64,000 bases of DNA, from NCBI RefSeq assembly GCF_055900595.2, contig NZ_CM148325.1, one strand, 5' to 3'. Below, piece by piece: positions 19,449-56,206 of the stretch. The notes under the pieces are model-generated. The model saw only the letters and a list, made by a program, of their open reading frames with translations. It was not told the origin of the DNA and did not search any database. Numbering within the stretch: position 1 is the first letter of the stretch; the number at the start of each line of letters is the position of its first letter. The position numbers and the translations under genes are program-made.

Positions 19449-20012
19449 TCAACGACTGCGCTTAGCGTGGCGCTCCCAGTTTTCTTGCTTTGCCTGCGCC
19501 GTTTTACGTAGTGCGACGTAACACGCCCCGCTGCCGCCATGATGCGGTAGCGCGGTACAATATGCCTGGACATCATCAAATTCGGTCAACCAGCACGCCA
19601 CATAGCTGCGGACAATATTGGCATGCGATTTATCTTCCCGCCCTTTACCATGAATAATCAGCACATTACGCAAACCATCCGCCAGGGCTTGTTGAATGAA
19701 ACTGAACACCATTTTGCGGCACTCTTCCACCGGCTGGCGCAAAAGATTCAGGCTCGCCTGTTGCGGATATTTACCACTGCGCAGCTTATCCAGCACCCCA
19801 TGTTGCAACCCTTCCCGCCGAAACTCCAGCAGCTGGCTTAGCGGGATGATGTCGAGAAATCCGGTGGTGAGGAAATTATCAAGTTGCAGCGTGTCGATAC
19901 GCTGCGGCGCACGTTGGTTACGCGTTGGATGCCAGTGGACATCTATAGCACGTTTCAGCGGCTGGACATCTTCCATGGCGTCAAGAAACAGCGATTTGTC
20001 GTCAAGGTTCAT
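19449..20012 (-). CDS. smrA: Smr-domain DNA endonuclease SmrA
   Basis: 187-aa ORF with Smr domain (LIIHGKGRE...). Confidence 0.85.
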   Translation of the reverse strand: MNLDDKSLFLDAMEDVQPLKRAIDVHWHPTRNQRAPQRIDTLQLDNFLTTGFLDIIPLSQLLEFRREGLQHGVLDKLRSGKYPQQASLNLLRQPVEECRKMVFSFIQQALADGLRNVLIIHGKGREDKSHANIVRSYVACWLTEFDDVQAYCTALPHHGGSGACYVALRKTAQAKQENWERHAKRSR

Positions 20013-39018: not shown

Positions 39019-40412
39019 CGCAATTTATCTCCTATTAAAAATTCCAGCGCAGCATCAAGACGAATATGCGGCAGCGGTTTGTCGACATCCATCACCTGCG
39101 GACGAAACGCCTCAAACTGGAAGCCTTGCTTATCCCAGAACGCCTGACCAGGCAAACGTGCGGGAACTTCGCCAGGATAAACAGTGAGCGGTGCGCCATC
39201 ACTGAGTCGATTACCGCGCAGCGCCGGGATTTTCTCACCGTTAACATCAATAATGCCGCTGGTGGTCGCCTGAACTGACGCCAGCCCCAGGCAGTCCATA
39301 CTGATCCCTTCGAACGCCGCATTTTGCCAGGCATCCTGAATCAGTTGTTGCAGTAATGAAACCATATTGGCGTGCTGATCGATGGTCACATGATCCGCTT
39401 TAGTGGCAGCAAACAATAGCTTATCGATAACCGGCGAAAACAAGCGCCGGAACAAGGTACGCTGCCCGTAGTGGAAGCTTTGCATCAGCTGCGTCAGCGC
39501 CAGACGCATATCATTGAATGCTTGTGGTCCACTGTTGAGAGGTTGCAGGCAATCCACCAGCACAATCTGCCGATCAAAGCGCAGAAAATGATTTTTATAG
39601 AACCCCTTCACCACTTTCTCGCAGTAATAATTAAATCGTTCGCGCAGCATTCCGGCATTGGTGTGCTTGTCGGCCTGTGCAAGTTTTGATTCGCCCCAGG
39701 CATCGACATCCGGCCACGGGAAGAATTGCAACGCGGGCGCACCTGCCATATACCCCGGCAAGACAAAACGCCCAGGCTGAATAAAGTGCAGCCCCTGCTG
39801 TTTACAGTGGTGGAGATAATCGGTCCATGCGGCAGCAATGTCTGCAAGACGGTTTTCGTCGGCAGGTGCTAGTGGGTCCAGCCCTTCGCACATCATTCGC
39901 CATTTTGCCGACCATTCGCCGCGCTGACCATTGAGTAAGCCCGTCATCTGGCGCGACCAGCTTAAATAGTCCTGCGCCAACATCGGCAAGTCGAGTAACC
40001 ATTCGCCGGGATAATCCACTATCTCCAGATACAACGTGGAAGTGTCTTTGAAGTGACGCAACAGCGAATCGTTCGATTTATAGCGTAGCGCCAGGCGAAT
40101 CTCACTGACGCCGCGTGTTGGGGTCGGCCAGGCGGGAGGATCGCCATATAACTGCGCCAGCCCTTCATCGTAGGTGAAGCGTGGAATGCCAAAGTCACGC
40201 TGGGGAATGCGTTTTACGCCCAGCAGGCGCTCTTCACGCACCGCACTTAATAGCGGCAAGCGTGCTCCGGCATGAATATTGAGCAACTGATTGACCATCG
40301 CAGTGATAAACGCGGTTTTGCCGCTGCGGCTAAGTCCGGTTACAGCGAGGCGCAGATGTCTGTCGACACCCCGATTCACCAGCGCATTAAGTTCATTTTT
40401 AAGTCGCTTCAT
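39015..40412 (-). CDS. ycjX: YcjX, P-loop NTPase
   Basis: Track ORF 39015..40499; start moved to [12 protein letters not shown] (465 aa); Walker A GLSRSGKT. Confidence 0.85.
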
Positions 40413-40556
40413 TGCTGTCCTGTGGACCAGAAAAAAATCATTCGTAAGGATATGAATGTGGGGGCCATGCCCTTGATTATCAACTGCCCGTGTTGTCATC
40501 TTGAGGCGAACTCCATAAGATGTGCAGCATTCACGTTCGGACGGAGTTCCTGACCT

Positions 40557-41555
40557 ATGTCCCCTACTATTTATGATATTGCCAGGGTTGCCGGCGTATC
40601 AAAATCCACCGTATCACGCGTGCTGAATAAGCAAACCAATATCTCCCCGGAAGCGCGCGAAAAAGTGTTACGGGCCATTGAAGAATTACAGTATCAGCCA
40701 AATAAACTGGCCCGCGCGCTGACCTCTTCGGGCTTTGATGCCATTATGGTGATTTCTACCCGCTCGACCAAAACTACGGCGGGTAACCCGTTTTTCTCCG
40801 AAGTTTTGCATGCCATTACCGCCAAAGCGGAAGATGAGGGTTTCGACGTGATATTGCAGACGTCGCACAACCCAGCTGAAGACTTACAAAAATGTGAAAG
40901 CAAAATTAAGCAGAAAATGATTAAAGGCATTATTATGCTAAGTTCGCCAGCAGATGAGTCTTTTTTCGCCCAACTCGATAAATACGATATTCCGGTGGTA
41001 GTAATTGGCAAAGTTGAAGGTGAATATGCCCATGTTTATTCTGTCGATACCGATAATTTTGGCGACAGTATTGCGCTGACCGATGCATTAATTGAAAGTG
41101 GACATAAAAATATTGCCTGCCTACATGCTCCGCTTGATGTCCATGTTTCGGTTGACCGCGTTAATGGTTATAAGCAAAGTCTGGAAGATCATAATATTGC
41201 AGTGCGCAATGAGTGGATCGTTGACGGCGGTTATACCCATGAGACAGCACTGCAAGCCGCGCGGGAATTATTAAGCCAGTCACCGTTGCCTGAGGCAGTG
41301 TTTGCTACTGACAGCCTGAAATTAATGAGCATTTATCGTGCGGCGGCAGAGAAAAACATTGCTATTCCGCAGCAGTTAGCGGTGGTGGGTTATAGTAATG
41401 AAACGCTGTCGTTTATATTAACGCCTGCACCGGGCGGCATCGATGTTCCGACGCAGGAGTTAGGTCAACAAAGCTGCGAGTTATTATTCCGCTTAATTGC
41501 CGGAAAACCGTCACCACAAAATATTACCGTTGCCACGCATATGTCGTTGAAATAA
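40557..41555 (+). CDS. ycjW: LacI-family regulator YcjW
   Basis: 332-aa ORF with N-terminal HTH ([21 protein letters not shown]). Confidence 0.9.
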
Positions 41556-41569
41556 ATGCCAGCTACGTT

Positions 41570-41653
41570 GCCTGAATGCCGGATGCGATGCTGGCGCATC
41601 TTATCCGGCCTACATTTATAAACCGGATAAAGTACTCGCGCCGCATCCGGCAA
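41570..41653. repeat. REP/BIME element (two REP units)
   Basis: GCCGGATGCGATGCTGGCGCATCTTATCCGGCCTAC and CCGGATAAAGTACTCGCGCCGCATCCGGC between ycjW and ompG. Confidence 0.6.
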
Positions 41654-41665
41654 TTTAGCACATTA

Positions 41666-42571
41666 TCAGAACGCGTAATTCACACCGACACCTGCATAAT
41701 GGAATTTATCGCTGTCGCCTTCATCGTGATCCTGCCACTCAAACGCGTATTCCAGCGAAACGGAAAGACCATTCTGGAAATCATAACCGTAAAACAAACC
41801 AAGACGGTTAAAATCATGGCCTTCACGTTCGATATCATCCTGCCAGTCCCAGTTACTCCAGCGATCCAACCCAATGCGCGTATACGGTGTTACCGAGTGA
41901 TTGCCGAGCGTCAGCGGTAAATAGGCGCGAATTTCTTGCGTGGAGAATTCACCGTTATTGCGGCTGTCGTCCATATTGAAGCCGCGCTCGAGATAATAGT
42001 TCACTCGCAAGGCAACCGTTTCGTTGAAGGTATATTGCAGACCCGTTTCCGTTTCGACACGGGTATCAGCATAACCGGTTGTATTCAGATCGTTGGCAAA
42101 TTTATACATCGACAGCCATCCGTTGAAACGTAAATCGTCAGTCAGTTTCACATCCCAGTCTGGCGCGATTTTCCAGCGCTGCATATTTGCCGTGTCTTTA
42201 CCCGGTTCATCAACATAGTGATAACCATAGTTACGGAAACCACCGGTCAGGCCGAAACTGAAATCATCGCTTTCGAGAAACTGATAATGCACTTCGAGTT
42301 CCGGGCGATCAAACCAGTTTCCACGTTTACCCGCGCTATAATCTACCGGCCCTTCCTGGTAATAAGCCAGCGATATTCTCCACGGCCCATTGGCAGCATT
42401 AAAATAGACGGAAGGCTCCGCCAGCCCGTCCATATCTTCGCCATAACCCTCGACGTTTTCTATTTCGTACATCGCGCCGATATTAAAGTGCCAGTCGTTT
42501 TTTTCCTCAGCCTGTGCGCAGGCCATTCCCGCACACATCACCAGTGCGGTACAGGGTAATAACTTTTTCAT
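41666..42571 (-). CDS. ompG: Outer membrane porin OmpG
   Basis: 301-aa ORF with signal peptide and C-terminal aromatic residue (…VNYAF). Confidence 0.9.
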   Translation of the reverse strand: MKKLLPCTALVMCAGMACAQAEEKNDWHFNIGAMYEIENVEGYGEDMDGLAEPSVYFNAANGPWRISLAYYQEGPVDYSAGKRGNWFDRPELEVHYQFLESDDFSFGLTGGFRNYGYHYVDEPGKDTANMQRWKIAPDWDVKLTDDLRFNGWLSMYKFANDLNTTGYADTRVETETGLQYTFNETVALRVNYYLERGFNMDDSRNNGEFSTQEIRAYLPLTLGNHSVTPYTRIGLDRWSNWDWQDDIEREGHDFNRLGLFYGYDFQNGLSVSLEYAFEWQDHDEGDSDKFHYAGVGVNYAF

Positions 42572-42616
42572 TATTGTTCCTTGTATTATCCTGGGGGAAT
42601 GCCTTCCCCCCTGTAT

Positions 42617-43699
42617 TTAGCGAATTGCTATTTCCGTTTCTGCATCAAAGAAATGACATTTGGTCATATCAAAATGAATAGTGATATTTTCTCCTGCATG
42701 ATAATCATTTAACGCACCAGCACGGACCACTAACTCGTGCCCCCCAACCGTGGTGTAGAGCATAAATTCCGCACCGGTTAATTCTGCCACGCTAATTTTG
42801 GCGGAAATGTTATTTTCCTCTTGCGCATCCGGATGAATATCTTCCGGGCGTATTCCCATCACGATGGGCTTATGCAAGCTTTCCTGCGTTTTCAGAACCG
42901 CTAATTTATCTTCGGGAATGGTTAATTTAAGCGTTTCCGTAACGAATTTATCGCCATCGATCGTGCCGCGAATAAAATTCATTGCTGGTGACCCAATAAA
43001 GCCGGCAACAAACATATTCGCCGGTTGGTTATAGACCGTTTTCGGCGCACCGACCTGCTGAACAATCCCATCCTTCATAATGACAATCCGCGTCGCCATG
43101 GTCATCGCTTCGGTCTGATCGTGGGTCACGTAGATCATGGTGGTGTTCAGTTTCTGATGCAGCTTGCTGATTTCCGCGCGCATTTGTACGCGCAGCTTGG
43201 CATCCAGGTTAGAGAGCGGTTCATCCATTAAAAACACGCCCGCTTCGCGCACAATCGCCCGTCCAAGCGCCACACGCTGGCGTTGCCCGCCGGAAAGCGC
43301 ACCCGGCTTGCGTTTCAGGTACTCACGCAGGCCAAGGATTTGCGCCGCCCAGTTAACCCGCTCATCTATCACCTCTTTGGCGATTTTTTGCATCTTCAGG
43401 CCAAACGCCATGTTGTCGTAGACCGTCATATGCGGATACAGCGCGTAGTTCTGGAACACCATCGCAATATTGCGCGCTTTGGCCGGAACGTCGTTCATTC
43501 GTTTGCCGTCGATCAACAGATCGCCGCCGCTAATCTCCTCAAGCCCGGCAATCATACGCAGCGTCGTCGATTTACCACAGCCCGACGGGCCGACAAATAC
43601 AATGAACTCTTTATCGGCAATTTCCAGGTTGAAGTCCTTCACCACATGCACCTGGTTATCGTAGATTTTTTGAATATGTTGTAACGAAAGCTGTGCCAT
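42617..43699 (-). CDS. ycjV: ABC transporter ATP-binding protein YcjV (MalK-like), full length
   Basis: 360-aa ORF with Walker A GPSGCGKST, signature LSGGQ and Walker B FLMDEPLS; intact here, whereas I recall a truncated pseudogene in K-12. Confidence 0.85.
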   Translation of the reverse strand: MAQLSLQHIQKIYDNQVHVVKDFNLEIADKEFIVFVGPSGCGKSTTLRMIAGLEEISGGDLLIDGKRMNDVPAKARNIAMVFQNYALYPHMTVYDNMAFGLKMQKIAKEVIDERVNWAAQILGLREYLKRKPGALSGGQRQRVALGRAIVREAGVFLMDEPLSNLDAKLRVQMRAEISKLHQKLNTTMIYVTHDQTEAMTMATRIVIMKDGIVQQVGAPKTVYNQPANMFVAGFIGSPAMNFIRGTIDGDKFVTETLKLTIPEDKLAVLKTQESLHKPIVMGIRPEDIHPDAQEENNISAKISVAELTGAEFMLYTTVGGHELVVRAGALNDYHAGENITIHFDMTKCHFFDAETEIAIR

Positions 43700-43712
43700 G
43701 TTGATTCCTTTG

Positions 43713-44372
43713 CTATACGTTTTGCCAGAAGGCCGATAACCGCGGCCAGGTCAGAGATTCCGTTGAGGGCAGCAACAGTTGCGCCCCGGTTAAGCTCGTG
43801 CCGATCCCCACCGAGCGCATACCGCTGGCGTTAATGGCGTCAATACCCGCCTGCGCATCTTCAATGCCAATGCAGGCCTGTGGAGGCACGCCCAGCCCTG
43901 CACAGGCGGCGAGAAAGATTTCCGGGTCCGGTTTCGAGTGTTTAAGTTGGGAAGCGTCCGCGCAGAAGGTGAAAAACTCGCGCAGCTCCAGCGCCGCTAA
44001 AATTGTTGGGGCATTCAGGGAGACGGAGGCCAGCCCTACCGGGATGCCTTGCGCCCGAAGATCTGCCAGCAAAGGCCGAATTCCCGGCAGAACAGCGTTA
44101 ACCGTCAGTTCGCGCAGTGAGTGGACGTAGAGCAGATTTTTGCGATACGCCAGTTGCGCCCGCTCTTGCACGTTAAAGTCGCCCTCTTTGCCCCCGTGTT
44201 GCAGAATGCGTCGCAGGGACTCATCGCGGCTGATCCCTTTTAACGTCTCGTTAAATTGCACATCGATGCCGATGCCGATTTCGGCAGCAATCTGCTGCCA
44301 TGCCTGGAAGTGCAGATGTGCGGTGTCGGTGATCACGCCATCCAGATCGAAAATTACCCCTTGTAGTTTCAT
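43713..44372 (-). CDS. ycjU: Beta-phosphoglucomutase
   Basis: 219-aa ORF with HAD motif I ([12 protein letters not shown]). Confidence 0.9.
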
Positions 44373-44388
44373 TCATCCTCTTGATGCG

Positions 44389-44402
44389 TGGTAGCGGTCC
44401 CA
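44389..44402. promoter_or_regulatory. Putative LacI-family (YcjW) operator, copy 2
   Basis: Minus strand TGGGACCGCTACCA, identical to the 14-mer upstream of ycjM; inside the ycjT 3' end, 17 to 30 nt upstream of the ycjU ATG. Confidence 0.45.
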
Positions 44403-46267
44403 TTGAAGGGCAAAATAAAATCACCCAAACAGAAAACAGACTCTTCAGTCACGGAAATAAGCTGACCGTTCAACCGCAGTGAAACGGGCGCAGAAGTTCG
44501 AATCGCAATACGCTGCGCGTCGAGAGTGACCTGTAATTCGCAGCCCTGCCAGAACAGAGGGAAAGACAACTGTTGCCACTGCTCAGGTAACGCCGGATTG
44601 AGAAGTAATTCGCCGTCGCGCACGCTGACTCCGGCAAAACCCTGAATCGCGCCCAGCCAGATAGCGCCAGTTGCGGCAGCGTGGATACCGTCATCACAGC
44701 TATGCGGATCAGCACCGAGATCGATTTCACTCCCCTCGCGCCAGAACGGGTAACTCTGCGCAAGCAAGCCACAACGCGCGGCAACAATGCCGTGGATCGC
44801 TTTACTCAATGACGAGTCGTGAATGGTGCGCGGTTCATAAAATTGCAGATTGGCGAGACAAGAGGCCGCTGAAAATTGTTCCGGTAGCATGTAATTGAGC
44901 ATCACTACATCGGCCTGCTTGAGGATCTGCATCTCGTTCACTTCTGCGCGTGAATAATCCAGCAGAATGGTTTGCTTCCCGGCCGCCGCTTTGTATTTCG
45001 CCAGATCTATCGCCGGTTTCGCCATAAACGAATCATCCTGCGGCAAAACGCCGTCGGGCTGAATTTCTGGCATCCACAGCTCTTTGAGGAACATGTCGGC
45101 ACGATGAATAAACGCGTCGTCGCTACAGCAAAACTGGCGAGCAATATTCAGCGCCTGTTGGACGTTGTAGCAGGCCATATAACTGGTGTATGCGTTATTA
45201 TTAACGTGTTCGGTATATTCGTCTGGCCCAATAACATCATGAATTTCCAGGCGGTCGTTAACCCTTACCGCACGGCTAATCCAGAACTTTGCGGTCTCCA
45301 GCAGTAGCGCCATGCCTTCGTGAGCGATGAAGCTTTCATCTCCCGTTACCTGCCAGTATTGAATAACCGCCCAGGCGATATCGGCAACCAGATGATGTTC
45401 TGCCTGCGCTGAGGCCACTTTTTGCCGCAGCCCGGTACGAATGTTAATGGCGGCAAATTCCGGCGTTTCTTCTTCGCCGCTACGTGCGCTCTCCCACGGA
45501 AACAGCGCGCCCTGCCAGCCATTGCGTCGCGCTTTCTCCTGCGCCCCTGGTAAGTTGTGCCAGCGATAGCGCAGCAAACTCCGGGCAATCGTCGGTTCGC
45601 TAAACAGATGGAACGGCAGCATGAACACTTCCGTATCCCAGAAAACATGGCCTTTGTAGCCTTCCCCGGTTAAGGCTTTTGCCGCAATGCTGCTACGCTC
45701 GTCGTGGGCGGGCGTCATAATACGCAAATGATAAAGCGCATAGTCTAACGCCCGCTGATCGTGCGTATCGCAACTCTTTACCGTGATACGACGTTTCTGC
45801 CACCATTGCTGCCAGTTTTCTGTCGATGCTGCAAGAAGTTGGTCATAACTCTGTTGTGTAGACATTTCGAGCTGGCGAAGCGACCCACTGCCCCACTCGT
45901 CTAAAGCGGCTTGTCGGTCGTCCCGCCAGTCAATCCACACCCGCTTTTGCAGGGTCAGTGTTTCACCTGTGCGAAGTTGCGTGCTGGTATGTTGCAGCAA
46001 ACGGCGCTCTTTTGCGGTATAGCACTGCTGAACGTCACCATCCGCCTGACAGTGACAACTGATGGCCACATCACTGCGCCCATCCTGGGTGGTGTAGATC
46101 CCCTGCATCAAATGCTGACCAAACACCCGCACCTGGGTTTCGTCAAGATGCTGGCGACCGTGGTTGGTTTGCGTGGCGTTAATGCCTGTTGAGATCAGCA
46201 CTGATGCCTCGGCGTCCAGCGGGGTAATACTGATTTCCAGCGCGATCAACGGCAGTTGATCTGTCGA

Positions 46268-46978
46268 AATAAATATCCTCCGGCATAGCCGGAGGTTTTT
46301 CAAATGCGCCTGTAAGGCTCTGTTACCAGCCGCGCCCTAACAGGCGCATACGATCTGACATTTGCATTCAACTTCGTTACTTACGGCCCGTAAACGGGCT
46401 GCCCGGATATGGAATCGATAACTGCTCCCCCATTTTATCCTCTTCAAGCTGGTGCTTTATGTAGTCCTGTATCTTCGCCGTGTTCTTACCCACCGTATCG
46501 ACATAGTACCCTCGGCACCAGAACTCCCTGTTTCTGTATTTGAATTTCAAATCCCCAAACTGCTCGTAAAGCATCAGACTGCTTTTCCCTTTCAGATATC
46601 CCATAAAGCCGGATACGCTCATTTTGGGTGGGATTTCCACAAGCATATGGATATGATCTGCGCAGCACTCTGCTTCCAGAATCCGTACGCTTTTCCACTC
46701 ACACAGCTTTCTCAAAATACTGCCTATCGCCCTACGCTTCTCTCCGTAAAACGCCAGTCTTCGGTATTTCGGCGCAAAAACTATGTGATATTTACAGTTC
46801 CAGCGGGTGTGCGCTAAGCTCTTTTCGTCCCCCATTGGGACCCCCTTTTGATTTCTTGTTTGACACTTGCAGTTGCCAGACCGCAAGGTGTTTTAACAAA
46901 TCAAAAGGGGTTTTAATAACTGGCTCAAAGCTGAAAGCTTTCCGGAACCCCCAGCCTAGCTGGGGGTTTTCTGTGCAC
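46268..46978 (-). mobile_element. IS200-type insertion sequence (IS200/IS605 family), about 711 bp
   Basis: Boundaries inferred from where ycjT homology stops and resumes (within a few nt). Upstream of tnpA: palindrome CCCCCAGC-ctag-GCTGGGGG (46943..46961) and a stem-loop overlapping the tnpA RBS. Downstream end: hairpin CCTCCGGC-ata-GCCGGAGG (46277..46295). Confidence 0.85.
46377..46835 (-). CDS. tnpA: IS200 transposase TnpA (HUH Y1)
   Basis: Track ORF 46377..46886; start moved to MGDEKSLAHTRWNCKYHIVFAPKYRR (152 aa); HUH motif (ADHIHML) and C-terminal Tyr region (RGYYVDTVG). Confidence 0.9.
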   Translation of the reverse strand: MGDEKSLAHTRWNCKYHIVFAPKYRRLAFYGEKRRAIGSILRKLCEWKSVRILEAECCADHIHMLVEIPPKMSVSGFMGYLKGKSSLMLYEQFGDLKFKYRNREFWCRGYYVDTVGKNTAKIQDYIKHQLEEDKMGEQLSIPYPGSPFTGRK

Positions 46979-47343
46979 AACAAAGCGACGACTTGCAAGG
47001 GTGAACCCTGCGCCGTCGCTCGTGCGCCAGATAACACTGCGGCGTAATTCTCCACTGGCAAAGTCAAGCTCACGCTGCCACGCTTCGCGGGATAACGAAA
47101 AAATCTCGCCGTTTAGGGTAATTTCCATTCCCACCACGTCTGGCAGATTCACCAGTTCGTTGATTTCACCTTTCCCGGCTCGATGATAAAGCCCTGCCAG
47201 ATACATGCCGCGCGTCTGCCGCGTGTAATCTTCTTCATGGCTGGCACGAAGCCCAAGATAGCCGTTTCCCTGCGCCATTAATGAGGCATATTTATTCAGG
47301 GTATGCTGGCTGAAATGGGGTTCCGTTAATGTTACTGGCCTGG

Positions 47344-48399
47344 TCATAATTCCACACGCGTCCCTGTTTCTGCGGATTGATACAGCGCCGCCACCAGTTG
47401 CTGGATGATGTACCCTTGCTCGGCGTCGGCAATCATCACTGGCTTGCCCTGTACGTGATTGATAAAGGCTTCCATGCTGCGCAAATGACGGTTGTCGTCG
47501 GCCAGTTCCCGTTGCATCAACGTCATTAATTCACCGTTGTTGTCGGTATAGATATGCGCCGGAAATAGCGTGGCTCCCGCTTTATCGCCGCAAAAGCTGA
47601 CGTTCATAATCGACTGTTCGCGGATGTTGAGTGCAAATGATGTCTCCAGCCAAAGAATGCCGCCGTTATGAAATTCAATGGTGCCAAACAGCGAATCTTC
47701 GACGCTGTAGGTTGCCGGGTCCCACTCGCCAAATTGACCACAGCTCTTTTGCGGGCCGATCTTTTGAAAGCTATGCGCATTCACGCTTTTCACTGCCGGA
47801 AAGCCCAGCACATACATCGCGGCATCCAGCATATGAATGCCGATGTCGATCAGCGGGCCACCGCCCTGCAGTTCTTTATTGGTAAAGACACCCCAACCGG
47901 GAACGCCGCAGCGACGCAGGGCGCGAGCGGTCGTCACGTAAATCTGACCCAAAACGCCGTTGGTCACCTGTTCACGCAGTTGTTGCGTATCAAGGGCAAA
48001 ACGATGGTGAAAGTCGTAGGCCAGCACCTTGCCCTGTTTGCGCGCGGTATCGCACATTTCCCGCGCCTGTTCTGGCGTCATGGCGGGCGGTTTCTCGCAC
48101 ATCACATGGCAGCCTGCCTCCAGCGCCATCAGGGTATGCTCGTAATGAAAACGGTTAGGTGAACAGACGCTTATCACGTCAGGTTTTACCGCCAGCAGCA
48201 TGGCCTGCGGATCGTCCCACACGGATGCGTTCCCGTATTTCTCTGCCAGCGCCTGCGCCTGGGAAAGGCGGCTGTCACAGACAGCCACCAGTTCCAGATC
48301 GTTGCGGGTGCAGTAGTACGAAGCATGAACCTTATCCGCCACCTGGCCCGCGCCTATTATCGCGACCCGCAGCGGAGAGCTTGTCATTGCACTTTTCAC
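47344..48399 (-). CDS. ycjS: Gfo/Idh/MocA-family oxidoreductase
   Basis: 351-aa ORF with Rossmann motif (VAIIGAGQVADKVH); stop overlaps ycjT start. Confidence 0.9.
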   Translation of the reverse strand: MKSAMTSSPLRVAIIGAGQVADKVHASYYCTRNDLELVAVCDSRLSQAQALAEKYGNASVWDDPQAMLLAVKPDVISVCSPNRFHYEHTLMALEAGCHVMCEKPPAMTPEQAREMCDTARKQGKVLAYDFHHRFALDTQQLREQVTNGVLGQIYVTTARALRRCGVPGWGVFTNKELQGGGPLIDIGIHMLDAAMYVLGFPAVKSVNAHSFQKIGPQKSCGQFGEWDPATYSVEDSLFGTIEFHNGGILWLETSFALNIREQSIMNVSFCGDKAGATLFPAHIYTDNNGELMTLMQRELADDNRHLRSMEAFINHVQGKPVMIADAEQGYIIQQLVAALYQSAETGTRVEL

Positions 48400-48408
48400 A
48401 AAGACCTC

Positions 48409-49197
48409 TTAGCAGGTGCGCAACCAGGCCAAAGAATCACGGTACGCCTGAGCAGGATCTTCTGCCCGGATACGCCCTTCATACACCACATAGCCCTGAT
48501 AGTTATCGGCGCGCAACTGTTCAAACAGCGCGTGGAAATCGAGGGTGCCGCTGCCCGGCTGATAGCGATGGTTATCGGCAATATGCACATGACCAAGCAG
48601 GTCACGGTTGTCATGCAGCGCCTGCGCCAGGTTATCCTCTTCGATGTTCATGTGATAGAAATCGCCGATAATCTGCACATGTTTAAGGTTGTTTTCGACG
48701 ATGTAACGACGAGCATCGGCGAGCGTGTTGATCATGTGGTCCTGATAGCGGTTTAGCGGTTCGAGATACACCACCGTTCCGGTACGCGCGGCTACCTTCT
48801 CCAGGAAACGCAGGGAATCGCTCACCATTTGACGATCGCCGTCCAGGCTGCGCGGCGAGGTCATCGGCGGTAAGCGAAAGGTAAACATGCCCCACGCTGC
48901 TGGAACGACAATACCTTTGCCGCCCACTTCCGCCAGCGCCTCAAGAATGCGCTCGATCTGCTTTAAACCATTAAGACGACGCTCTTCGATAAAGTCGCCA
49001 ATCCAGCCGTCATAGCCGCCGCAGGCGGTGGTCACCGGTAAACCGGTTTCTTTGATCGCTGCTTTGACTTCTTCGAGATTGTTGACCAGCAGTTTGCCGT
49101 CAATCTCAAAACCATCAAAACCCATCTCTTTGATATAACGAAATTTCTCCAGAATATTTTCCGGAAAGAAGGCCTGATTCTGTGTGCCGATTTTCAT
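48409..49197 (-). CDS. ycjR: Sugar phosphate isomerase/epimerase (xylose isomerase-like TIM barrel)
   Basis: 262-aa ORF MKIGTQNQAFFPENILEKFRYIKEMGFDGFEI... Confidence 0.9.
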   Translation of the reverse strand: MKIGTQNQAFFPENILEKFRYIKEMGFDGFEIDGKLLVNNLEEVKAAIKETGLPVTTACGGYDGWIGDFIEERRLNGLKQIERILEALAEVGGKGIVVPAAWGMFTFRLPPMTSPRSLDGDRQMVSDSLRFLEKVAARTGTVVYLEPLNRYQDHMINTLADARRYIVENNLKHVQIIGDFYHMNIEEDNLAQALHDNRDLLGHVHIADNHRYQPGSGTLDFHALFEQLRADNYQGYVVYEGRIRAEDPAQAYRDSLAWLRTC

Positions 49198-49213
49198 TTT
49201 TCCGTCCTTAGAA

Positions 49214-50267
49214 TTAAAAAGTTACGCCCATTTTGATGCTCTGTTCCGGATGCTGGTCGACATACTGCATGTAGCTTTCCGGGCTGTTAGCAAAGGTCAC
49301 CACCGGGTCGATTAAATCTTCACAATTGAGATAACCGTTCATCAGCAGTTCCCAGCAGGTTTCTTCAATACGCTTGCGGCTCCAGCGCGGATAATCCGGG
49401 TTCGGTTCACTGCACGCACGAGAGAAGACAATTTTGGCGTTGTTGAAATGCGCTTCACGTCCGAGGTTAAAACCTTCAGCAAACGGTTTGGCAAACGCAA
49501 CATAGGAGATGGTGCCGCCATAAGCCAGGCCGCGCAGTGCCGATTGCAGCGCGTCGGCGTAGCCGCTGGTTTCGATAATCACATCGGCACCCTGCTTGCC
49601 GGTCAGCGTTTTAATCTCTTTGCCTACATCCGTGCCAATGGGGTTAAGGCAGAAATCCGCCCCGTGGCGACGGGCAATATCACAGCGATGAGCGATAGGA
49701 TCGACACCAATCACCACCGACGCGCCAGCGCGTTTTGCCAGTTGAATGGCAATTTGACCAATCGCGCCAAGCCCTACCACCACCACAAAATCGCCCACGC
49801 GCACGTTGGCATCGCGCACGCCGCTCATGGCAAACTGCGCCGGGTCGTAACAGACGGCGTTTTTCCACGAGCTACCTTGCGGCATTTTGCGCAGTTTGTA
49901 GTTATTCACCGCGTTAATGATGACCGTTTCGGAAAGCGGGCCGTAGCCGCATACGCTGTCGCCCACCGCGTAGTCGGTAACCTCGCTGCCGCACTCGATA
50001 ATGTCGCCAACCACCATGTTGCCAAGCTGGAACTTGCCAAACTCAATGCCGCGCGGCGCATCTGCCGGACGGGGGGGTGAACATCTGCCATTCGCCATTA
50101 AAGTCTTCATTAATAAACGGGCTGGCGGCGCGGAAATCGACCACTTCCGTCCCGTGTTTCGGCGCGCCGAACCGCACGCGGATCTTCACTTCATTGGCTG
50201 AAATCGCCCTGTCTTCATACTCCACCAACGCGGCAACGCGCGGTGCTGTGGCTACTAACTTTTTCAT
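49214..50267 (-). pseudogene. ycjQ: ycjQ (zinc-type alcohol dehydrogenase) with +1 frameshift in a C7 run
   Basis: N-terminal 74-aa ORF (50043..50267, MKKLVATAPRVAALVEY...QMFTPPSGRCAARH*) and C-terminal 298-aa ORF (49214..50110) overlap in different frames around G7 at 50071..50077 (C7 on the coding strand). Confidence 0.7.
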
Positions 50268-50297
50268 GTAAAACTCCTTGTCAAGAAACTGGCCGCT

Positions 50298-51140
50298 TTA
50301 GCCCTTCACGCCACCGGCGGTCAAACCACTCTTAATAAAACGTTCCGAAAGTGCATACATAATCACCACCGGCAATGCGGTCACCAGCGAGGCCGCCATC
50401 ATTCGGCCCCAGATGTAATCAGGGGTACTGAACAGCGCGTTCAGGCCTACCGGTAAAGTGAAATTGCTGGCGCTGGAGAGGAAAATCGAGGCAAACAGAT
50501 AGTCGTTCCACGCCACCATAAAGCAGTAGACGAACACGGATATCAGGCCCGACATCGCCAGGGGCACTGTGATACGGAAGATGATTTGCAGACGGTTGAG
50601 GCCATCCATCATCGCCGCTTCTTCGATTTCATCAGGGATGGTGTCGAAGTAGCTTTTCAGCATAAACACGGCGGTGGGCAGGGTTTGCGTCACCATGGTG
50701 ATGATCAGCGCCATCTCGGTGTCGTAAATGCCAAGCGCAGTGATGATTTTGAACAGCGGCACCACCAGCAAAATGCCGGAGAACATGTACACCGTGTAAA
50801 AGCTGGCGTTGATGGTCATTCGCCCTTTAAAGCGCAGGCGGGAAAGCGCGTAAGCCCCGAGAATGCCGAGAAATACTGCTATCACGGATGAAACTACCGA
50901 CACCACCAGGCTGTTACGGAAATAATCGACAAACGGGAAAATCACCGGGTTAAAAATGTCGACGTAATGCTCCAGCGTCCACTGCTGTGGCAGCAGCGTA
51001 GGATGCAGCGAGATCGCCTCTTTCGCGCTTTTGAACGAGGTCATCAGCATCACAAAAAAGGGAAACAGCGTGATGATGAGAAACAGCGCAAGCCCGCAGT
51101 AAAAACCGATGCGACTGAGTGTGCGTTTATTTGTTGCCAT
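50298..51140 (-). CDS. ycjP: ABC transporter permease
   Basis: 280-aa polytopic membrane ORF; overlaps ycjO stop. Confidence 0.9.
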   Translation of the reverse strand: MATNKRTLSRIGFYCGLALFLIITLFPFFVMLMTSFKSAKEAISLHPTLLPQQWTLEHYVDIFNPVIFPFVDYFRNSLVVSVVSSVIAVFLGILGAYALSRLRFKGRMTINASFYTVYMFSGILLVVPLFKIITALGIYDTEMALIITMVTQTLPTAVFMLKSYFDTIPDEIEEAAMMDGLNRLQIIFRITVPLAMSGLISVFVYCFMVAWNDYLFASIFLSSASNFTLPVGLNALFSTPDYIWGRMMAASLVTALPVVIMYALSERFIKSGLTAGGVKG

Positions 51141-52008
51141 TGAGGTTCACCCGTTTTCTGGTCAGCAGAATGACAGCGAAAATAATGATGAAGAGCACCA
51201 CCGAGATCGCCGCCGCTTTCCCTAAGTCATTAAAGGCAAAGGCGGTTTTGTAGAGATAGACGCCGAGAATATCGACCTTGGTCGTCAGCAAATAAACGTC
51301 CGCGAACATGTAGAACATCCAGATGGTACGCAGAGTCACCACCGTCGCCAGGACCGGCATAATCGCGGGCAGCGTGACGATGCGAAACCGTTGCCAGGCA
51401 TTCGCGCCGTCCATCTCTGCCGCTTCGTACAACGATTTATCAATGGTCTGCAAAATCGCCAGAAACGAGATAAAGGCATACGGGAAGTAGCGCCAGATGG
51501 CGAACAGCACCACCAGCACAAAACTACTGCCCGGGTTATCGAACCACAGCGGCGCCTGCTCATAGAGATGCAGAAGATCGACGCCGAGGTAGTTCACAAT
51601 GCCGTAGCCGTTGTTGAACATGTATTTCCAGGCGAACACCAGTGAAATGGATGGCGTTACGTAGGAGAGGATCACCAACGAACGCGCGGTCTTGCGCAGG
51701 CGAAACTCGCGGTTGAAAAACATCGCCACTGCCAGCCCGAGCACGGTGCTGCCCGCCACCACCAGCGCGGTATACCAGACCGTCATCCACAGCGAGTGCC
51801 AGAAGCCGGGATCGGAGAGAATACGCACATAGTTGCTCACCCCAACAAACGTTGACTCGATGTTGGGATTAAGCGGCAGACGTAAAAAACTGATTTCGAT
51901 ATTCGACACCATCGGCCACGCCACCAGACCGCCCAGCAGTAATAAGCTGGGCGCGAGAAGCAACAGCGCAAAGGGCATATCGGAACGACCTGAAAAAAGC
52001 CTGTTCAT
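51127..52008 (-). CDS. ycjO: ABC transporter permease
   Basis: 293-aa polytopic membrane ORF. Confidence 0.9.
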   Translation of the reverse strand: MNRLFSGRSDMPFALLLLAPSLLLLGGLVAWPMVSNIEISFLRLPLNPNIESTFVGVSNYVRILSDPGFWHSLWMTVWYTALVVAGSTVLGLAVAMFFNREFRLRKTARSLVILSYVTPSISLVFAWKYMFNNGYGIVNYLGVDLLHLYEQAPLWFDNPGSSFVLVVLFAIWRYFPYAFISFLAILQTIDKSLYEAAEMDGANAWQRFRIVTLPAIMPVLATVVTLRTIWMFYMFADVYLLTTKVDILGVYLYKTAFAFNDLGKAAAISVVLFIIIFAVILLTRKRVNLNGNK

Positions 52009-52028
52009 TGCGGATTCCTGTTCTGGGA

Positions 52029-53321
52029 TTAGTGCTGTTCGATCAGTTCATCCAGCTTTTTCTGGCTCGCTTGCAGCGTGGTTGAGAGATCGGCTTTCCC
52101 CACGGTGACGTTATGCACCATTGAACTCACCACACCAGAGCCCGTGACATCGCCCATGCGGGTAAAGTTTTTGTCCCCTACCGCACCAAAGACCTGAATG
52201 TTTGGCAGTTCGCTAATCAACTGATTCGGCAAGTCTCCCAGCGCCTTAATCACGTCGTTATCTTTCCAGGTGGCAGTAGTCACAACCGCTTTGTTCACCG
52301 GCAGCGCCGCGCCTGGCGACATCATCACCCAGTCGGCAATGTTGTCTGCCTGCTCCATAAAGGTGACAAATTTTTCTGCCGCTTCCGTCTCTTCGCTTTT
52401 TTGCCCGGCGGTAATGGTCAGCGAGGTCAACATGCCGTAGACCGCCGAGTTTTTCTCGGTTGGCACCACGAAACCGACATTTTTCGGGTCACCTTCTTTA
52501 ATCACAGCCGGAAGGATATAGGTGGAGTAAATCGCCATCGGCGCAGTGCCGTTCATAAAGGCGTCTTTCACTTCCATAATGTCGTTAGAGCCCGGCATGG
52601 TGTTGGCAGCAAGGTCGCGGTAATAGGTCAGCGCCTGCATCATCTCCGGCGTATCAAGGGTGATTTTGCCTTCGGCGTTAAAAACGTTGGCCTGATTGGA
52701 TAACGCAAACTGAGAGAACGATTGTTCCGTCAGTACGCTTTCTGCCGTCGGCAGTGCAATACCGTATTTTTTATTCGCCGGATCGTTCAGTTTCTGTGCG
52801 ACATCCAGCAACTGTTGCCAGTTTTTCGGCTCATCCAGCCCGGCTTTTGCCAGCACATCTTTGCGATACCAGATACCGCCAATCCATGCGCTGACAGGAA
52901 CACCGGTCCAGGCGCTACCATCTTCGGTGCGCACAATCCGCAGAACGCCGTCATAAAACGCGCCTTCACCGACATTACTGATGACCGTAGCAACCGCTTT
53001 GCGATCGATAAGCTGTTCTTTGTCCATCACTTTCGCGTAGTCATGGCTGGTTTCGATCACTTCCGGCAGCGAGCCGCTACGGGAAAGGGTGATGACTTTG
53101 GTGTTATAGGCATCTTCTTCCACCGGCACTTGTTTAACAGTGATGCCTGGGTTTTCTTTTTCAAAACGCGCAATTAACTGACTTATAACCGCCTGGCGTT
53201 CCTGTTCCACCGAAGAATGCATAAACTCGATGGAGACATTCGTTTTATTTTCTTCTTTACAACCTGAAATCAGGGCGCAGGAAACCAGTGCTGATAACAG
53301 CACGATTTTAGATTTAATCAT
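52029..53321 (-). CDS. ycjN: ABC transporter periplasmic sugar-binding protein
   Basis: 430-aa ORF with lipoprotein-type signal (LLSALVSCALISGC). Confidence 0.9.
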   Translation of the reverse strand: MIKSKIVLLSALVSCALISGCKEENKTNVSIEFMHSSVEQERQAVISQLIARFEKENPGITVKQVPVEEDAYNTKVITLSRSGSLPEVIETSHDYAKVMDKEQLIDRKAVATVISNVGEGAFYDGVLRIVRTEDGSAWTGVPVSAWIGGIWYRKDVLAKAGLDEPKNWQQLLDVAQKLNDPANKKYGIALPTAESVLTEQSFSQFALSNQANVFNAEGKITLDTPEMMQALTYYRDLAANTMPGSNDIMEVKDAFMNGTAPMAIYSTYILPAVIKEGDPKNVGFVVPTEKNSAVYGMLTSLTITAGQKSEETEAAEKFVTFMEQADNIADWVMMSPGAALPVNKAVVTTATWKDNDVIKALGDLPNQLISELPNIQVFGAVGDKNFTRMGDVTGSGVVSSMVHNVTVGKADLSTTLQASQKKLDELIEQH

Positions 53322-53334
53322 GAGATGTTCCTTT

Positions 53335-55014
53335 TTATTTAATCCACATAACCTGCCAGGGGCGCAGCGTTATTTCATTACCCACTATATCAACTTCACT
53401 AATCAGATCCCGACCGTGCAGGTCAGTAATATTTATATGCTGAATATTTTCACTGACATTAAACAATCCTGTCAGACAATTACCATCCGCGTTGCTTCTT
53501 TGAATACGCATTACGGATGAATTAACCGTATCGATGGTAAAATCATTATCTGGATGAAACTCGTTATGACTGCGACGAATTTTAATTAGTCGCGACAATT
53601 CATGATATACCGCGTGCCTTAACGTCGCTTTATTGTTCAGTTCGGTCGTGATCTCTTCGCTGGTGTATTTTTTACGGTTAATCGCACGGTTATATCCCAG
53701 TTTTTCGACACCTGCGTAATCATTACGCGAGCCCAGAATACTTTGAATATATATCGCTGGCACACCGGGGAAAATTAACAAAATCGCATGGGCAAGGATA
53801 AACCTGGCGCAACGTTCTTCATCGCTACTCTCGCGGCGGCTTAACGCATCCATATAAGTGACATTCATTTCATACGGACTGCGCGTACCATCGGGATTAT
53901 TTTTCCAGTTTACTAATGCCCCTTCCTGCTGTAACGCCTCGACTAGCGCTAATATCTCGCTTTCAGGCAACAAGCCTCGCAGTGGGTTAAGCCCAATACC
54001 ATCATGAGACGCGAGGAAGTTAAACCAGGTGGTTTTACTGGAAGGCAACGTCAGACTTTGCGCCCACTGGCACAGCGCCTCGACGTTCTGTTTTTGCACC
54101 GCATGTAACACCAGCGGCGGCAGTGAGAACTGGTACACCATATGCGCTTCGTCATCACCGTTTCCAAAGTAAGCAATGTTGTCTTTGTGAGGAACATTGG
54201 TCTCGGTAATGATCACAGTACCTGGTGCTACGTCATCAATAATCGACCGTAACAGCTTGATAATCAGATGTGTTTTTTCCAGATGGATGCAGCTTGTTCC
54301 CGGCTCTTTCCACATAAAGCCAACGGCATCCAGACGGACATACTCTGCGCCTTTTTCCAGGTAACACAACAGCACATCTACCATCGCCAGTAATACATCT
54401 GGGCTGCGATAATTGAGGTCAATTTGATCGTCGCTAAATGTCGTCCATAAATGGCGCGTTGAATTATCGTTCATTTGAAACGACGTTAATAACGGTAACG
54501 CACGCGGGCGAGTGACGGCGCTGAGATCGGCTTGCGGGTCAACGGCAATAAAAAAATCTTCAAAACCTGGCTGCTGTTGTAAATAGTTTTTAAACCATTC
54601 ACTTTTAGCCGACATGTGGTTGCAGACTAAATCAAACATCAAATGGCTGCATTCACCGAGCTGCTGAATATCCTGCCACTCCCCTGCTTCACTGGCGACC
54701 TGATGATAATCAATTACCGAAAATCCATCATCAGATGTCCATGGGTAAAATGGCAACAAATGGACATGTGAAAAAATGCTTTGCAGCCAGTGATGGTAAA
54801 ACTGATTAAATGTGGGTAGTGGTTTTAAATCATTACTGTGAAATTGATCGGCATAGGTAATTAACACGACATCACTTTCATCCCAGTGTTTTTTACGTCG
54901 CTGTGTAATTAATCTTTTCGCACTCTCAAGACGCGTTACAAGTTTCTGTAAATGAGTCGCGGTAAATGTTCCACCGTAGATTTCGTCCAGGTAATCCGTA
55001 ATTTTCTGTTTCAT
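53335..55014 (-). CDS. ycjM: GH13 sucrose-phosphorylase-like enzyme (glucosylglycerate phosphorylase)
   Basis: Track ORF 53335..55041; start moved to MKQKITDYLDEIYGG (559 aa). Confidence 0.9.
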   Translation of the reverse strand: MKQKITDYLDEIYGGTFTATHLQKLVTRLESAKRLITQRRKKHWDESDVVLITYADQFHSNDLKPLPTFNQFYHHWLQSIFSHVHLLPFYPWTSDDGFSVIDYHQVASEAGEWQDIQQLGECSHLMFDLVCNHMSAKSEWFKNYLQQQPGFEDFFIAVDPQADLSAVTRPRALPLLTSFQMNDNSTRHLWTTFSDDQIDLNYRSPDVLLAMVDVLLCYLEKGAEYVRLDAVGFMWKEPGTSCIHLEKTHLIIKLLRSIIDDVAPGTVIITETNVPHKDNIAYFGNGDDEAHMVYQFSLPPLVLHAVQKQNVEALCQWAQSLTLPSSKTTWFNFLASHDGIGLNPLRGLLPESEILALVEALQQEGALVNWKNNPDGTRSPYEMNVTYMDALSRRESSDEERCARFILAHAILLIFPGVPAIYIQSILGSRNDYAGVEKLGYNRAINRKKYTSEEITTELNNKATLRHAVYHELSRLIKIRRSHNEFHPDNDFTIDTVNSSVMRIQRSNADGNCLTGLFNVSENIQHINITDLHGRDLISEVDIVGNEITLRPWQVMWIK

Positions 55015-55026
55015 GTTGCCTTTCCG

Positions 55027-55040
55027 TGGTAGCGGTCCCA
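55027..55040. promoter_or_regulatory. Putative LacI-family (YcjW) operator, copy 1
   Basis: Minus strand TGGGACCGCTACCA, imperfect palindrome centred on CG, 13 to 26 nt upstream of the ycjM ATG; identical copy at 44389..44402. Confidence 0.45.
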
Positions 55041-55185
55041 TGAAGCGAGAGACTACTCCGCAGAAAATAAACTGTCAATTGAGCACAAGGGTTTTAGTCA
55101 CGCAGGAAATCATTTTTTACCAGGGAAAAAGCGTATTTGTGAGCTGACGCAAATAATCTATGGGGATGTAAATAAGGTGTGACAG

Positions 55186-55210
55186 AAAAAGTAAACGGCG
55201 CATAAGCGCC
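55186..55210 (-). terminator. Putative terminator after pspE
   Basis: Minus-strand hairpin GGCGC-ttat-GCGCC followed by GTTTACTTTTT. Confidence 0.4.
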
Positions 55211-55227
55211 GCTTAGGGTGGATTCTT

Positions 55228-55542
55228 TTAACCTTTGACCTTCGGCATTGCGATGTCTTTCAGGCCGCCAGCGTTCTCAACGTGGGTATATCCCATCTCG
55301 CTAAGGATCTCTTTTGCCTGCCCTGACTGGCGTCCGGCATTGCAATACACTTTCACGGTGTCGTTTTTATCCGGAACGGCGGTGGCAATGCGCTCTTTCA
55401 CTTCCTTCAGGGGAATATTGATGGCTCCCTGAACGTGCTCTTGCTGATACTGCTCTGGAACACGAACATCGATCCAGTGTTCAGCGGCGAAAACGGGCAG
55501 TGAAAACACCAGTGTCAGAGCAAGTAAGCCTTTTTTAAACAT
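55228..55542 (-). CDS. pspE: Thiosulfate sulfurtransferase PspE (rhodanese)
   Basis: 104-aa ORF with signal peptide and active-site loop CNAGRQS. Confidence 0.9.
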   Translation of the reverse strand: MFKKGLLALTLVFSLPVFAAEHWIDVRVPEQYQQEHVQGAINIPLKEVKERIATAVPDKNDTVKVYCNAGRQSGQAKEILSEMGYTHVENAGGLKDIAMPKVKG

Positions 55543-55616
55543 GTAAGCGTCCTTCTATGGATGAAAATTGCCATCCATAATACGCCTTAGCTTTAACAAT
55601 TTTTGCGAAACTCCCC

Positions 55617-55838
55617 TCACCTTTTATAACGCTGCGCCAGCTTATTGGCAGCCCGACTTAATAGCGGTTCCAGCGCCACAGCCAGCAACATTTTCAGCGG
55701 TCGGCGAGCAACTGATTTTATCGCCCAACCAGCCACACCCGCCGGGCCATAGCGCAGTGCGGTAAGAAGTACCAGCTTGCCTGCTAATTTGAAACCAGGC
55801 TTCACCTTTTGCCCGGCCTGTTGCCAGCGAGTATTCAT
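55617..55838 (-). CDS. pspD: Phage shock protein D
   Basis: Track ORF 55617..55850; start moved to [10 protein letters not shown] (73 aa). Confidence 0.85.
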
Positions 55839-55846
55839 AACTTTCC

Positions 55847-56206
55847 TCACAGTTGACGGAAACGGCTACGTAACGTGAAAGTATCGGAAGTGACATAACG
55901 TTCCATCTCGCGTAAACGCGTTTCACTGGCCGCCAGTTCACGATCGACTTCATCTAACAATTCGCTGCTGGAAGGCAGTTGTTCACCAAACGCCATGTTG
56001 TCAGGCATTGGATCAAGCGCAAATGACAAAATGATGTAAGCAACCAGGGTAAACAGCGCCAGACCGAAGAAAATCGACAGCACCACCAGGATACGCGCCA
56101 GTTTTACCGGTACATCAAAATAGTTGGCAATCCCGGCGCAGACGCCGCGTACCATGCCCCGCTGTGGAATACGCCATAATTTTTTATTGAGATTAATGCC
56201 CGCCAT
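55847..56206 (-). CDS. pspC: Phage shock protein C
   Basis: 119-aa ORF with single TM helix; start overlaps pspB stop. Confidence 0.9.

Follow-up and report, generated by a model that had tools for sequence, protein, structure and literature searches.

A general counterpart of the sites considered here is lacO1, the operator of LacI, which is likewise an imperfect palindrome with a central CG, located just past the -10 element over the transcription start and vacated upon release of the repressor by a sugar inducer. LacI-family operators are also found within genes, where the PurR site in purB and the CcpA cre sites in coding regions act as roadblocks that can stop elongating RNA polymerase. 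For the Escherichia coli family member YcjW, ChIP-seq placed the top two regions before ycjM and between ycjT and ycjU, with a common 14-nt motif (Luhachack et al. 2019, Nat Commun 10:2868, PMC6599011); a motif test by Zuo & Stormo 2014 is cited in the same paper (PMC6599011). In electrophoretic mobility shift assays (EMSA), YcjW shifts a 50-bp ycjM probe, and it was identified as a repressor whose complex with DNA is disrupted by 0.5-1 mM kojibiose; the natural inducer may be another compound (PMC6599011). Deletion of ycjW raises expression of ycjM 28-61x, ycjT 20-26x, ycjU 39-58x and ompG 34-47x (PMC6599011). ChIP-exo gave 64 YcjW peaks, the strongest being those assigned to ycjU (signal/noise 1665) and ycjM (840), followed by a peak at 121 (Gao et al. 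2021, NAR 49:9696, PMC8464067).

The window analysed here, the whole stretch of 64,000 nt, covers the E. coli psp–ycj–puu region. On its minus strand the genes follow in the order pspABCDE, ycjM-N-O-P-Q-R-S-T, ycjU (pgmB), ycjV and ompG, and ycjW lies on the plus strand past ompG. The genes and sites that the argument needs are as follows.

53335 to 55014, minus strand: ycjM, glucosylglycerate phosphorylase, first gene of the ycjMNOPQRSTUV-ompG operon, with a Pfam Alpha-amylase domain
44369 to 47347, minus strand: ycjT, kojibiose phosphorylase, split by an IS200 element, with operator 2 in its 3' tail
43713 to 44372, minus strand: ycjU (pgmB), beta-phosphoglucomutase, directly downstream of operator 2, with a HAD hydrolase domain
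40557 to 41555, plus strand: ycjW, LacI-family repressor of 332 aa, intact, with Pfam domains LacI HTH (1.8e-20) and Peripla_BP_1 (1.5e-24)
55027 to 55040, minus strand: YcjW operator 1 (site 1), TGGGACCGCTACCA, at -26..-13 from the ycjM ATG (55014), between the -10 element and the ribosome-binding site (RBS), contained in the published EMSA probe and conserved
44389 to 44402, minus strand: YcjW operator 2 (site 2), the identical 14-mer, at -30..-17 from the ycjU ATG (44372), inside the 3' end of ycjT, where it encodes G-T-A-T

The two 14-mers are known sites, in the same locus, at the same positions and with the same sequence as the published YcjW operators. We consider it very probable that both are operators through which the LacI-family repressor YcjW controls the ycjMNOPQRSTUV-ompG sugar-utilisation operon, by the mechanism described further below. 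Because published work already covers both sites, their binder, the direction of regulation and a possible inducer, the discovery value is small. New here are the cross-species conservation, the position of the promoter and the counterpart layout in Firmicutes; the case also illustrates that true operators could be picked from raw sequence alone. The operon ties sugar availability to expression of the OmpG porin, and the neighbouring pspE links it to H2S-dependent antibiotic tolerance (Luhachack et al. 2019, PMC6599011), so that an understanding at the level of the operators has some physiological relevance.

A scan of the whole window for TGGGACCGCTACCA gives perfect matches on the minus strand at 55027..55040 and 44389..44402 only. 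On that strand, the context of site 1 (55049..55006) reads ...ctcgCTTCATGGGACCGCTACCACGgaaaggcaacATGaaacag... and that of site 2 (44410..44364) reads ...gcccTTCAATGGGACCGCTACCACGcatcaagaggatgaATGaaacta... The motif consists of the halves TGGGACC and GCTACCA and is an imperfect palindrome with a central CG, five of the seven half-site pairs being symmetric (TGGGACC vs TGGTAGC). Operators of the LacI/GalR type are even-length inverted repeats of ~14-20 bp around a central CpG, and the 14-mer has this form. A sequence-only reading of the window had described two identical copies, the palindrome centred on CG and a spacing of 13 to 26 nt from the ycjM start, and our analysis agrees with it on all three. 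It had also noted matching flanks (CTTCA...CG). The longest identical stretch common to both sites is indeed longer than the motif (17 nt, ATGGGACCGCTACCACG), but CTTCA is one position off at site 2 (CTTCA-A-TGGG). K-12 has AA instead of CG on the 3' side of site 2, which places the flanks outside the element.

The window copies are identical to those of K-12, which lie at 1370190-1370203 and 1380118-1380131. The distance between the sites is 10,638 nt in the window strain and 9,928 nt in K-12. Relative to the published operators, the window strain differs by the IS200 element in ycjT and by the 3' flank of site 2, neither of which is essential.

An exact repeat of a 14-mer is by itself weak evidence for an operator. 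The window has 12 maximal direct repeats of 14 nt or more, another of which is an unrelated 17-mer, and such frequent exact repetition would speak for a chance or otherwise non-regulatory duplicate. Matching the motif at up to three mismatches is uninformative, as six matches compare with 4.2 expected in the window. In contrast, the degenerate palindrome TGGKASCGSTMCCA at up to one mismatch has two matches vs 0.08 expected, and none of 100 shuffles reaches two. Chance is rejected by this test together with the finding that dozens of genera retain the 14-mer unchanged at the two orthologous positions. The same low standing applies to a 5'-UTR RNA hairpin that would control translation of ycjM and ycjU. 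Both copies do lie directly upstream of a Shine-Dalgarno sequence in the mRNA, but as RNA the motif forms a 3-bp stem of -1.9 kcal/mol, and the two leaders fold no better than shuffled sequences (z -0.24 and -1.10), on which ground a translational element was rejected. Direct binding of the protein is published, and we regard a chance duplicate or RNA element as extremely improbable.

Site 1 is embedded in a putative promoter region, of which the following elements are relevant.

55073 to 55078, minus strand: putative -35 hexamer TTGACA of the ycjM promoter, assigned from its sequence and its fixed position across species
55050 to 55055, minus strand: putative -10 hexamer TAGTCT, 17 nt after the -35 hexamer and ending 9 nt before operator 1
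55019 to 55025, minus strand: Shine-Dalgarno-like GGAAAGG of ycjM, abutting operator 1 on its 3' side, with the GGAAA columns 85-100% conserved
55192 to 55215, minus strand: terminator-like hairpin after pspE

The arrangement TTGACA-17-TAG(A/T)(T/C)T, ending 8-9 nt before the operator, occupies a constant position in 46 of the 49 Enterobacteriaceae species. A generic consensus promoter scan reported nothing at site 1. It missed this promoter because the -10 hexamer TAGTCT matches only three of the six TATAAT positions, and the promoter call accordingly rests on conservation in Enterobacteriaceae and on the layout seen in Firmicutes. Transcription would be expected to start at about 55042-55044, ~7 nt after the -10 hexamer, which would put operator 1 at roughly +3 to +18. 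The hairpin after pspE is predicted to separate the ycjM promoter from psp transcription and insulate it. An in-frame ATG at 55039..55041 overlaps the 5' edge of operator 1 (cATGGGACC) and would extend the ycjM ORF by nine codons, to 568 aa from the annotated 559 aa. This upstream ATG is not kept in other genera, which have cgTGGG at the position; this makes the annotated ATG further downstream, preceded by a Shine-Dalgarno sequence, the likely start of ycjM.

Conservation of both sites was assessed in 79 loci obtained by a scan for YcjM relatives. Nearly all Enterobacteriaceae loci carry the exact 14-mer upstream of ycjM, and it recurs ~9.9 kb downstream, before ycjU, in every Enterobacteriaceae locus that extends that far. 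In motif-anchored alignments, all 14 columns of site 1 are 98-100% conserved (55 distinct sequences) and the 14 columns of site 2 are 91-100% conserved (45 distinct sequences). The columns flanking the sites are mostly at 30-70%, and YcjM protein identity goes down to 60-70%. Natural variants such as TGGGAGCGCTCCCG, CGGGAGCGGTACCA and TGGTACCGCTCCCA stay within TGGKASCGSTMCCA and differ mainly at the symmetry-related positions 4/11 and 6/9, giving a half-site consensus of TGG[G/T]A[C/G]C. The conserved orthologous sites occur together with the regulator; among Enterobacteriaceae this co-occurrence is seen in E. coli only, the fetched flanks of the Enterobacteriaceae loci ending short of ycjW.

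In one locus, from Escherichia sp. MOD1-EC7003 (L049), both operators carry a single substitution, reading TGGGATCGCTACCA at 9975 and TGGGACCGCCACCA at 19902; in its closest relatives (L003 and L072) both operators are exact.

A related control region is found in Firmicutes. In loci from Listeria, Bacillus, Peribacillus and Fictibacillus (L051-L071), a YcjW orthologue of ~60% identity adjoins the ycjM orthologue in divergent orientation. The 11 residues of the recognition helix and the hinge (KLARAL) are identical between the Firmicute and E. coli proteins. The Firmicute control region, ~30-130 nt ahead of the ycjM orthologue, has the layout TTGACA-17-TATAxT, 7-9 nt and TGGGAGCGGTACCA, followed by the Shine-Dalgarno sequence and ATG. 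The order of promoter, operator and RBS is thus common to both groups, whereas the regulator is divergent and adjacent only in Firmicutes, and the four central bases of the Firmicute operator are inverted relative to E. coli (GCGG vs CCGC). These similarities suggest that the cluster and its control region may have been transferred horizontally together between Firmicutes and Enterobacteriaceae. The leader contains two or three sites in some loci of the Bacillus group. No second site was found before the ycjU orthologue in the Firmicute clusters examined.

In the window, ycjW faces ompG in convergent orientation at the operon's 3' end, at a distance of 13.5 kb from site 1. Its product can be aligned over the full length with CcpA and PurR, the leucine of the hinge (segment PNKLARAL) included, and these two together with a LacI-family regulator are the most similar solved structures. 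YcjW thus combines the N-terminal helix-turn-helix, leucine-bearing hinge helix and sugar-binding core of a cognate regulator. The alignment with LacI extends no further than residues 313-319 of the 360 in LacI, leaving YcjW without the tetramerisation helix, and a published homology model depicts a dimer. An autoregulatory site upstream of ycjW was rejected on two grounds, the window scan having no match within three mismatches near 40400-40560 and ChIP-exo having no peak there.

The two sites could in principle cooperate via DNA looping in the manner of lacO1/O2 or galOE/OI, with site 2 as an auxiliary that strengthens repression of ycjM. The presence in one operon of two identical sites of high affinity, each strongly occupied in vivo, would be compatible with such an arrangement. 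Looping by tetrameric LacI, however, involves a tetramerisation helix at the C-terminus and operators spaced by no more than a few hundred bp. YcjW, with 332 aa and the dimeric model, has no such helix, and its second site lies ~10 kb away rather than 92 or 401 bp; the distances of 9.9-10.6 kb are far past known LacI- or GalR-type loops. The Firmicute clusters, in addition, have a promoter-proximal site only. Looping was rejected for the missing tetramerisation tail and the ~10 kb separation, and we consider it very unlikely.

The published binding data agree with the mapped sites. EMSA probe LL58, GAGTAGTCTCTCGTTTCATGGGACCGCTACCACGGAAAGGCAACatgAAAC, corresponds to window positions 55058..55009 but for one base and has the 14-mer at its centre. 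Probes for ycjM, cyaA and narP and nonspecific probes make up the EMSA primer table, which contains none for site 2 (PMC6599011). The sequence-only reading had named YcjW as the obvious candidate binder and mentioned a report of YcjW sites at these two positions. That report is Luhachack et al. 2019 (PMC6599011), and YcjW as the binder is borne out by published ChIP-seq, ChIP-exo and derepression in the ycjW deletion, together with the EMSA on the ycjM probe. The placement of ycjW divergent from ycjM in the sequence-only reading is incorrect for this locus, where the annotated order puts the gene past ompG; the divergent arrangement is that of the Firmicute clusters only.

The ChIP-exo coordinates require conversion from NC_000913.2 to NC_000913.3, for which we assume a shift of 1977 nt. 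With this shift the ycjU peak reads CCCTTCAATGGGACCGCTACCAAACATCAG and brackets K-12 operator 2 exactly. Shifted equally, the 'ycjM' peak 18 (1368320-1368355, Dataset S4) falls ~100 nt downstream of operator 1, inside ycjM, and no motif-like sequence is present at this shifted position within the gene. The offset may be an artefact of peak calling or of the table. The 14-mer used as a literature query string returned no match, and YcjW is not named in the main text of Ravcheev 2014. No operator point mutation with a reporter is reported for either site in the YcjW literature found, so that the ycjW deletion is the basis for causality at either one.

Site 2 differs from site 1 in its setting. 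The ycjT stop codon overlaps the ycjU ATG (ATGA), and the site is therefore inside the ycjT reading frame, not intergenic. It is held within the ycjT coding sequence in a constant phase (xxT GGG ACC GCT ACC Axx) in 46 species, encoding G-T-A-T in the C-terminal tail. Although the YcjT tail varies around the site, four of the site's third codon positions, all fourfold degenerate (GGG ACC GCT ACC), are nearly invariant. In three loci, ycjT ends with ...DFI*, 10 nt before the operator: two are from Atlantibacter (L045, L046), and the third (L061), labelled Citrobacter freundii, has the same sequence type. The near-invariant degenerate positions and the Atlantibacter genes that end before the site indicate a constraint on DNA, not on protein.

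Site 2 might serve as operator for an internal promoter in the 3'-terminal part of ycjT, and this promoter would drive ycjU-ycjV-ompG independently of the ycjM promoter. The order of operator, Shine-Dalgarno sequence and ATG is shared with site 1, a TATTTT hexamer ends 9 nt upstream of site 2 in E. coli, and ycjU and ompG are somewhat more derepressed than ycjT in the ycjW deletion (PMC6599011). However, a consensus scan before site 2 finds no promoter-like site, and across 49 species no conserved sigma-70-like promoter emerges, the best scores being 6-9/12, mostly 7-8, at scattered positions, unlike at site 1. The conserved D-F-I-L codons of ycjT account for the T-rich stretch, which Enterobacter lacks. 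Moreover, the ChIP-exo table, obtained under repressing conditions, has no RNA polymerase flag at site 2 (PMC8464067). An internal promoter, the main alternative to the roadblock proposed next, is therefore doubtful in our assessment.

Our best guess is that site 2 acts as a transcription roadblock, as suggested by the missing conserved promoter and by the ~twofold stronger derepression of ycjU than of ycjT. Its location, inside a transcribed coding sequence without a promoter of its own, is that of a roadblock operator. By analogy, it would share this property with the PurR site in purB and the cre type, from which it would differ by lying at a gene boundary beside an RBS instead of mid-gene. 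The mechanism of site 2 is not addressed in the YcjW literature found.

Taken together, repression of the operon could proceed as follows. A YcjW dimer would recognise the halves TGGGACC and GCTACCA with one helix-turn-helix per half-site, and the leucines of its hinge helices would insert at the CpG in the centre, as they do elsewhere in the family. Bound to operator 1 at about +3 to +18 and abutting the RBS, YcjW would block initiation or promoter escape in the manner of LacI at lacO1. Kojibiose or a related glucoside would act as inducer and free it from the operator. Operator 2, located 10.6 kb downstream (9.9 kb in K-12), would provide a second checkpoint as an RNA polymerase roadblock to read-through into ycjU-ycjV-ompG.

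The presence of site 2 in Enterobacteriaceae and its absence before ycjU in the Firmicute clusters raise a further possibility. Enterobacteriaceae might have added operator 2 as a dedicated roadblock to an operon that was acquired as a single-operator design, such that OmpG stays off despite leak from upstream and the 'GTAT' of YcjT is a translated by-product. We put this forward tentatively and rate it as somewhat less than an even chance. If the roadblock reading is true, a large-pore porin would be kept off even under upstream leak.

Several features of the window strain are of minor interest. A second exact 17-nt direct repeat, CCAAACGCCATGTTGTC, equal in length to the operator repeat, is present at 43401..43417 (ycjV) and 55986..56002 (pspC/pspD region) and is presumed to be due to chance. 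Between the operators, ycjT is interrupted by a 706-nt IS200-family element at 46274..46979, with its tnpA on the minus strand at 46377..46835 (Pfam Y1_Tnp 7.9e-37). The insertion is absent from the closest E. coli match (strain Z0117EC0005) and from K-12; an IS200 in ycjT occurs in one of 5426 complete genomes (MB64), seemingly at another position. In ycjQ, at ~50071..50077, a run of seven G replaces the six found in the near-identical strain Z0117EC0005. The extra G shifts the frame and leaves a longest ORF of 298 aa vs 350; ycjQ may truly be a pseudogene, or the homopolymer may have been misread in sequencing.

A 701-nt stretch around site 1, annotated as pspE/ycjM, matches 5418 of 5426 complete genomes, 167 of these 5418 at an identity of at least 99%. 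Across the ycj operon (40001..56000), the window is only ~93-94% identical to K-12 and 99.9% identical to a minority of E. coli genomes, which suggests that the ycj region of this strain may represent a divergent haplotype. In the window strain ycjV is intact (360 aa), whereas it is a pseudogene in K-12.
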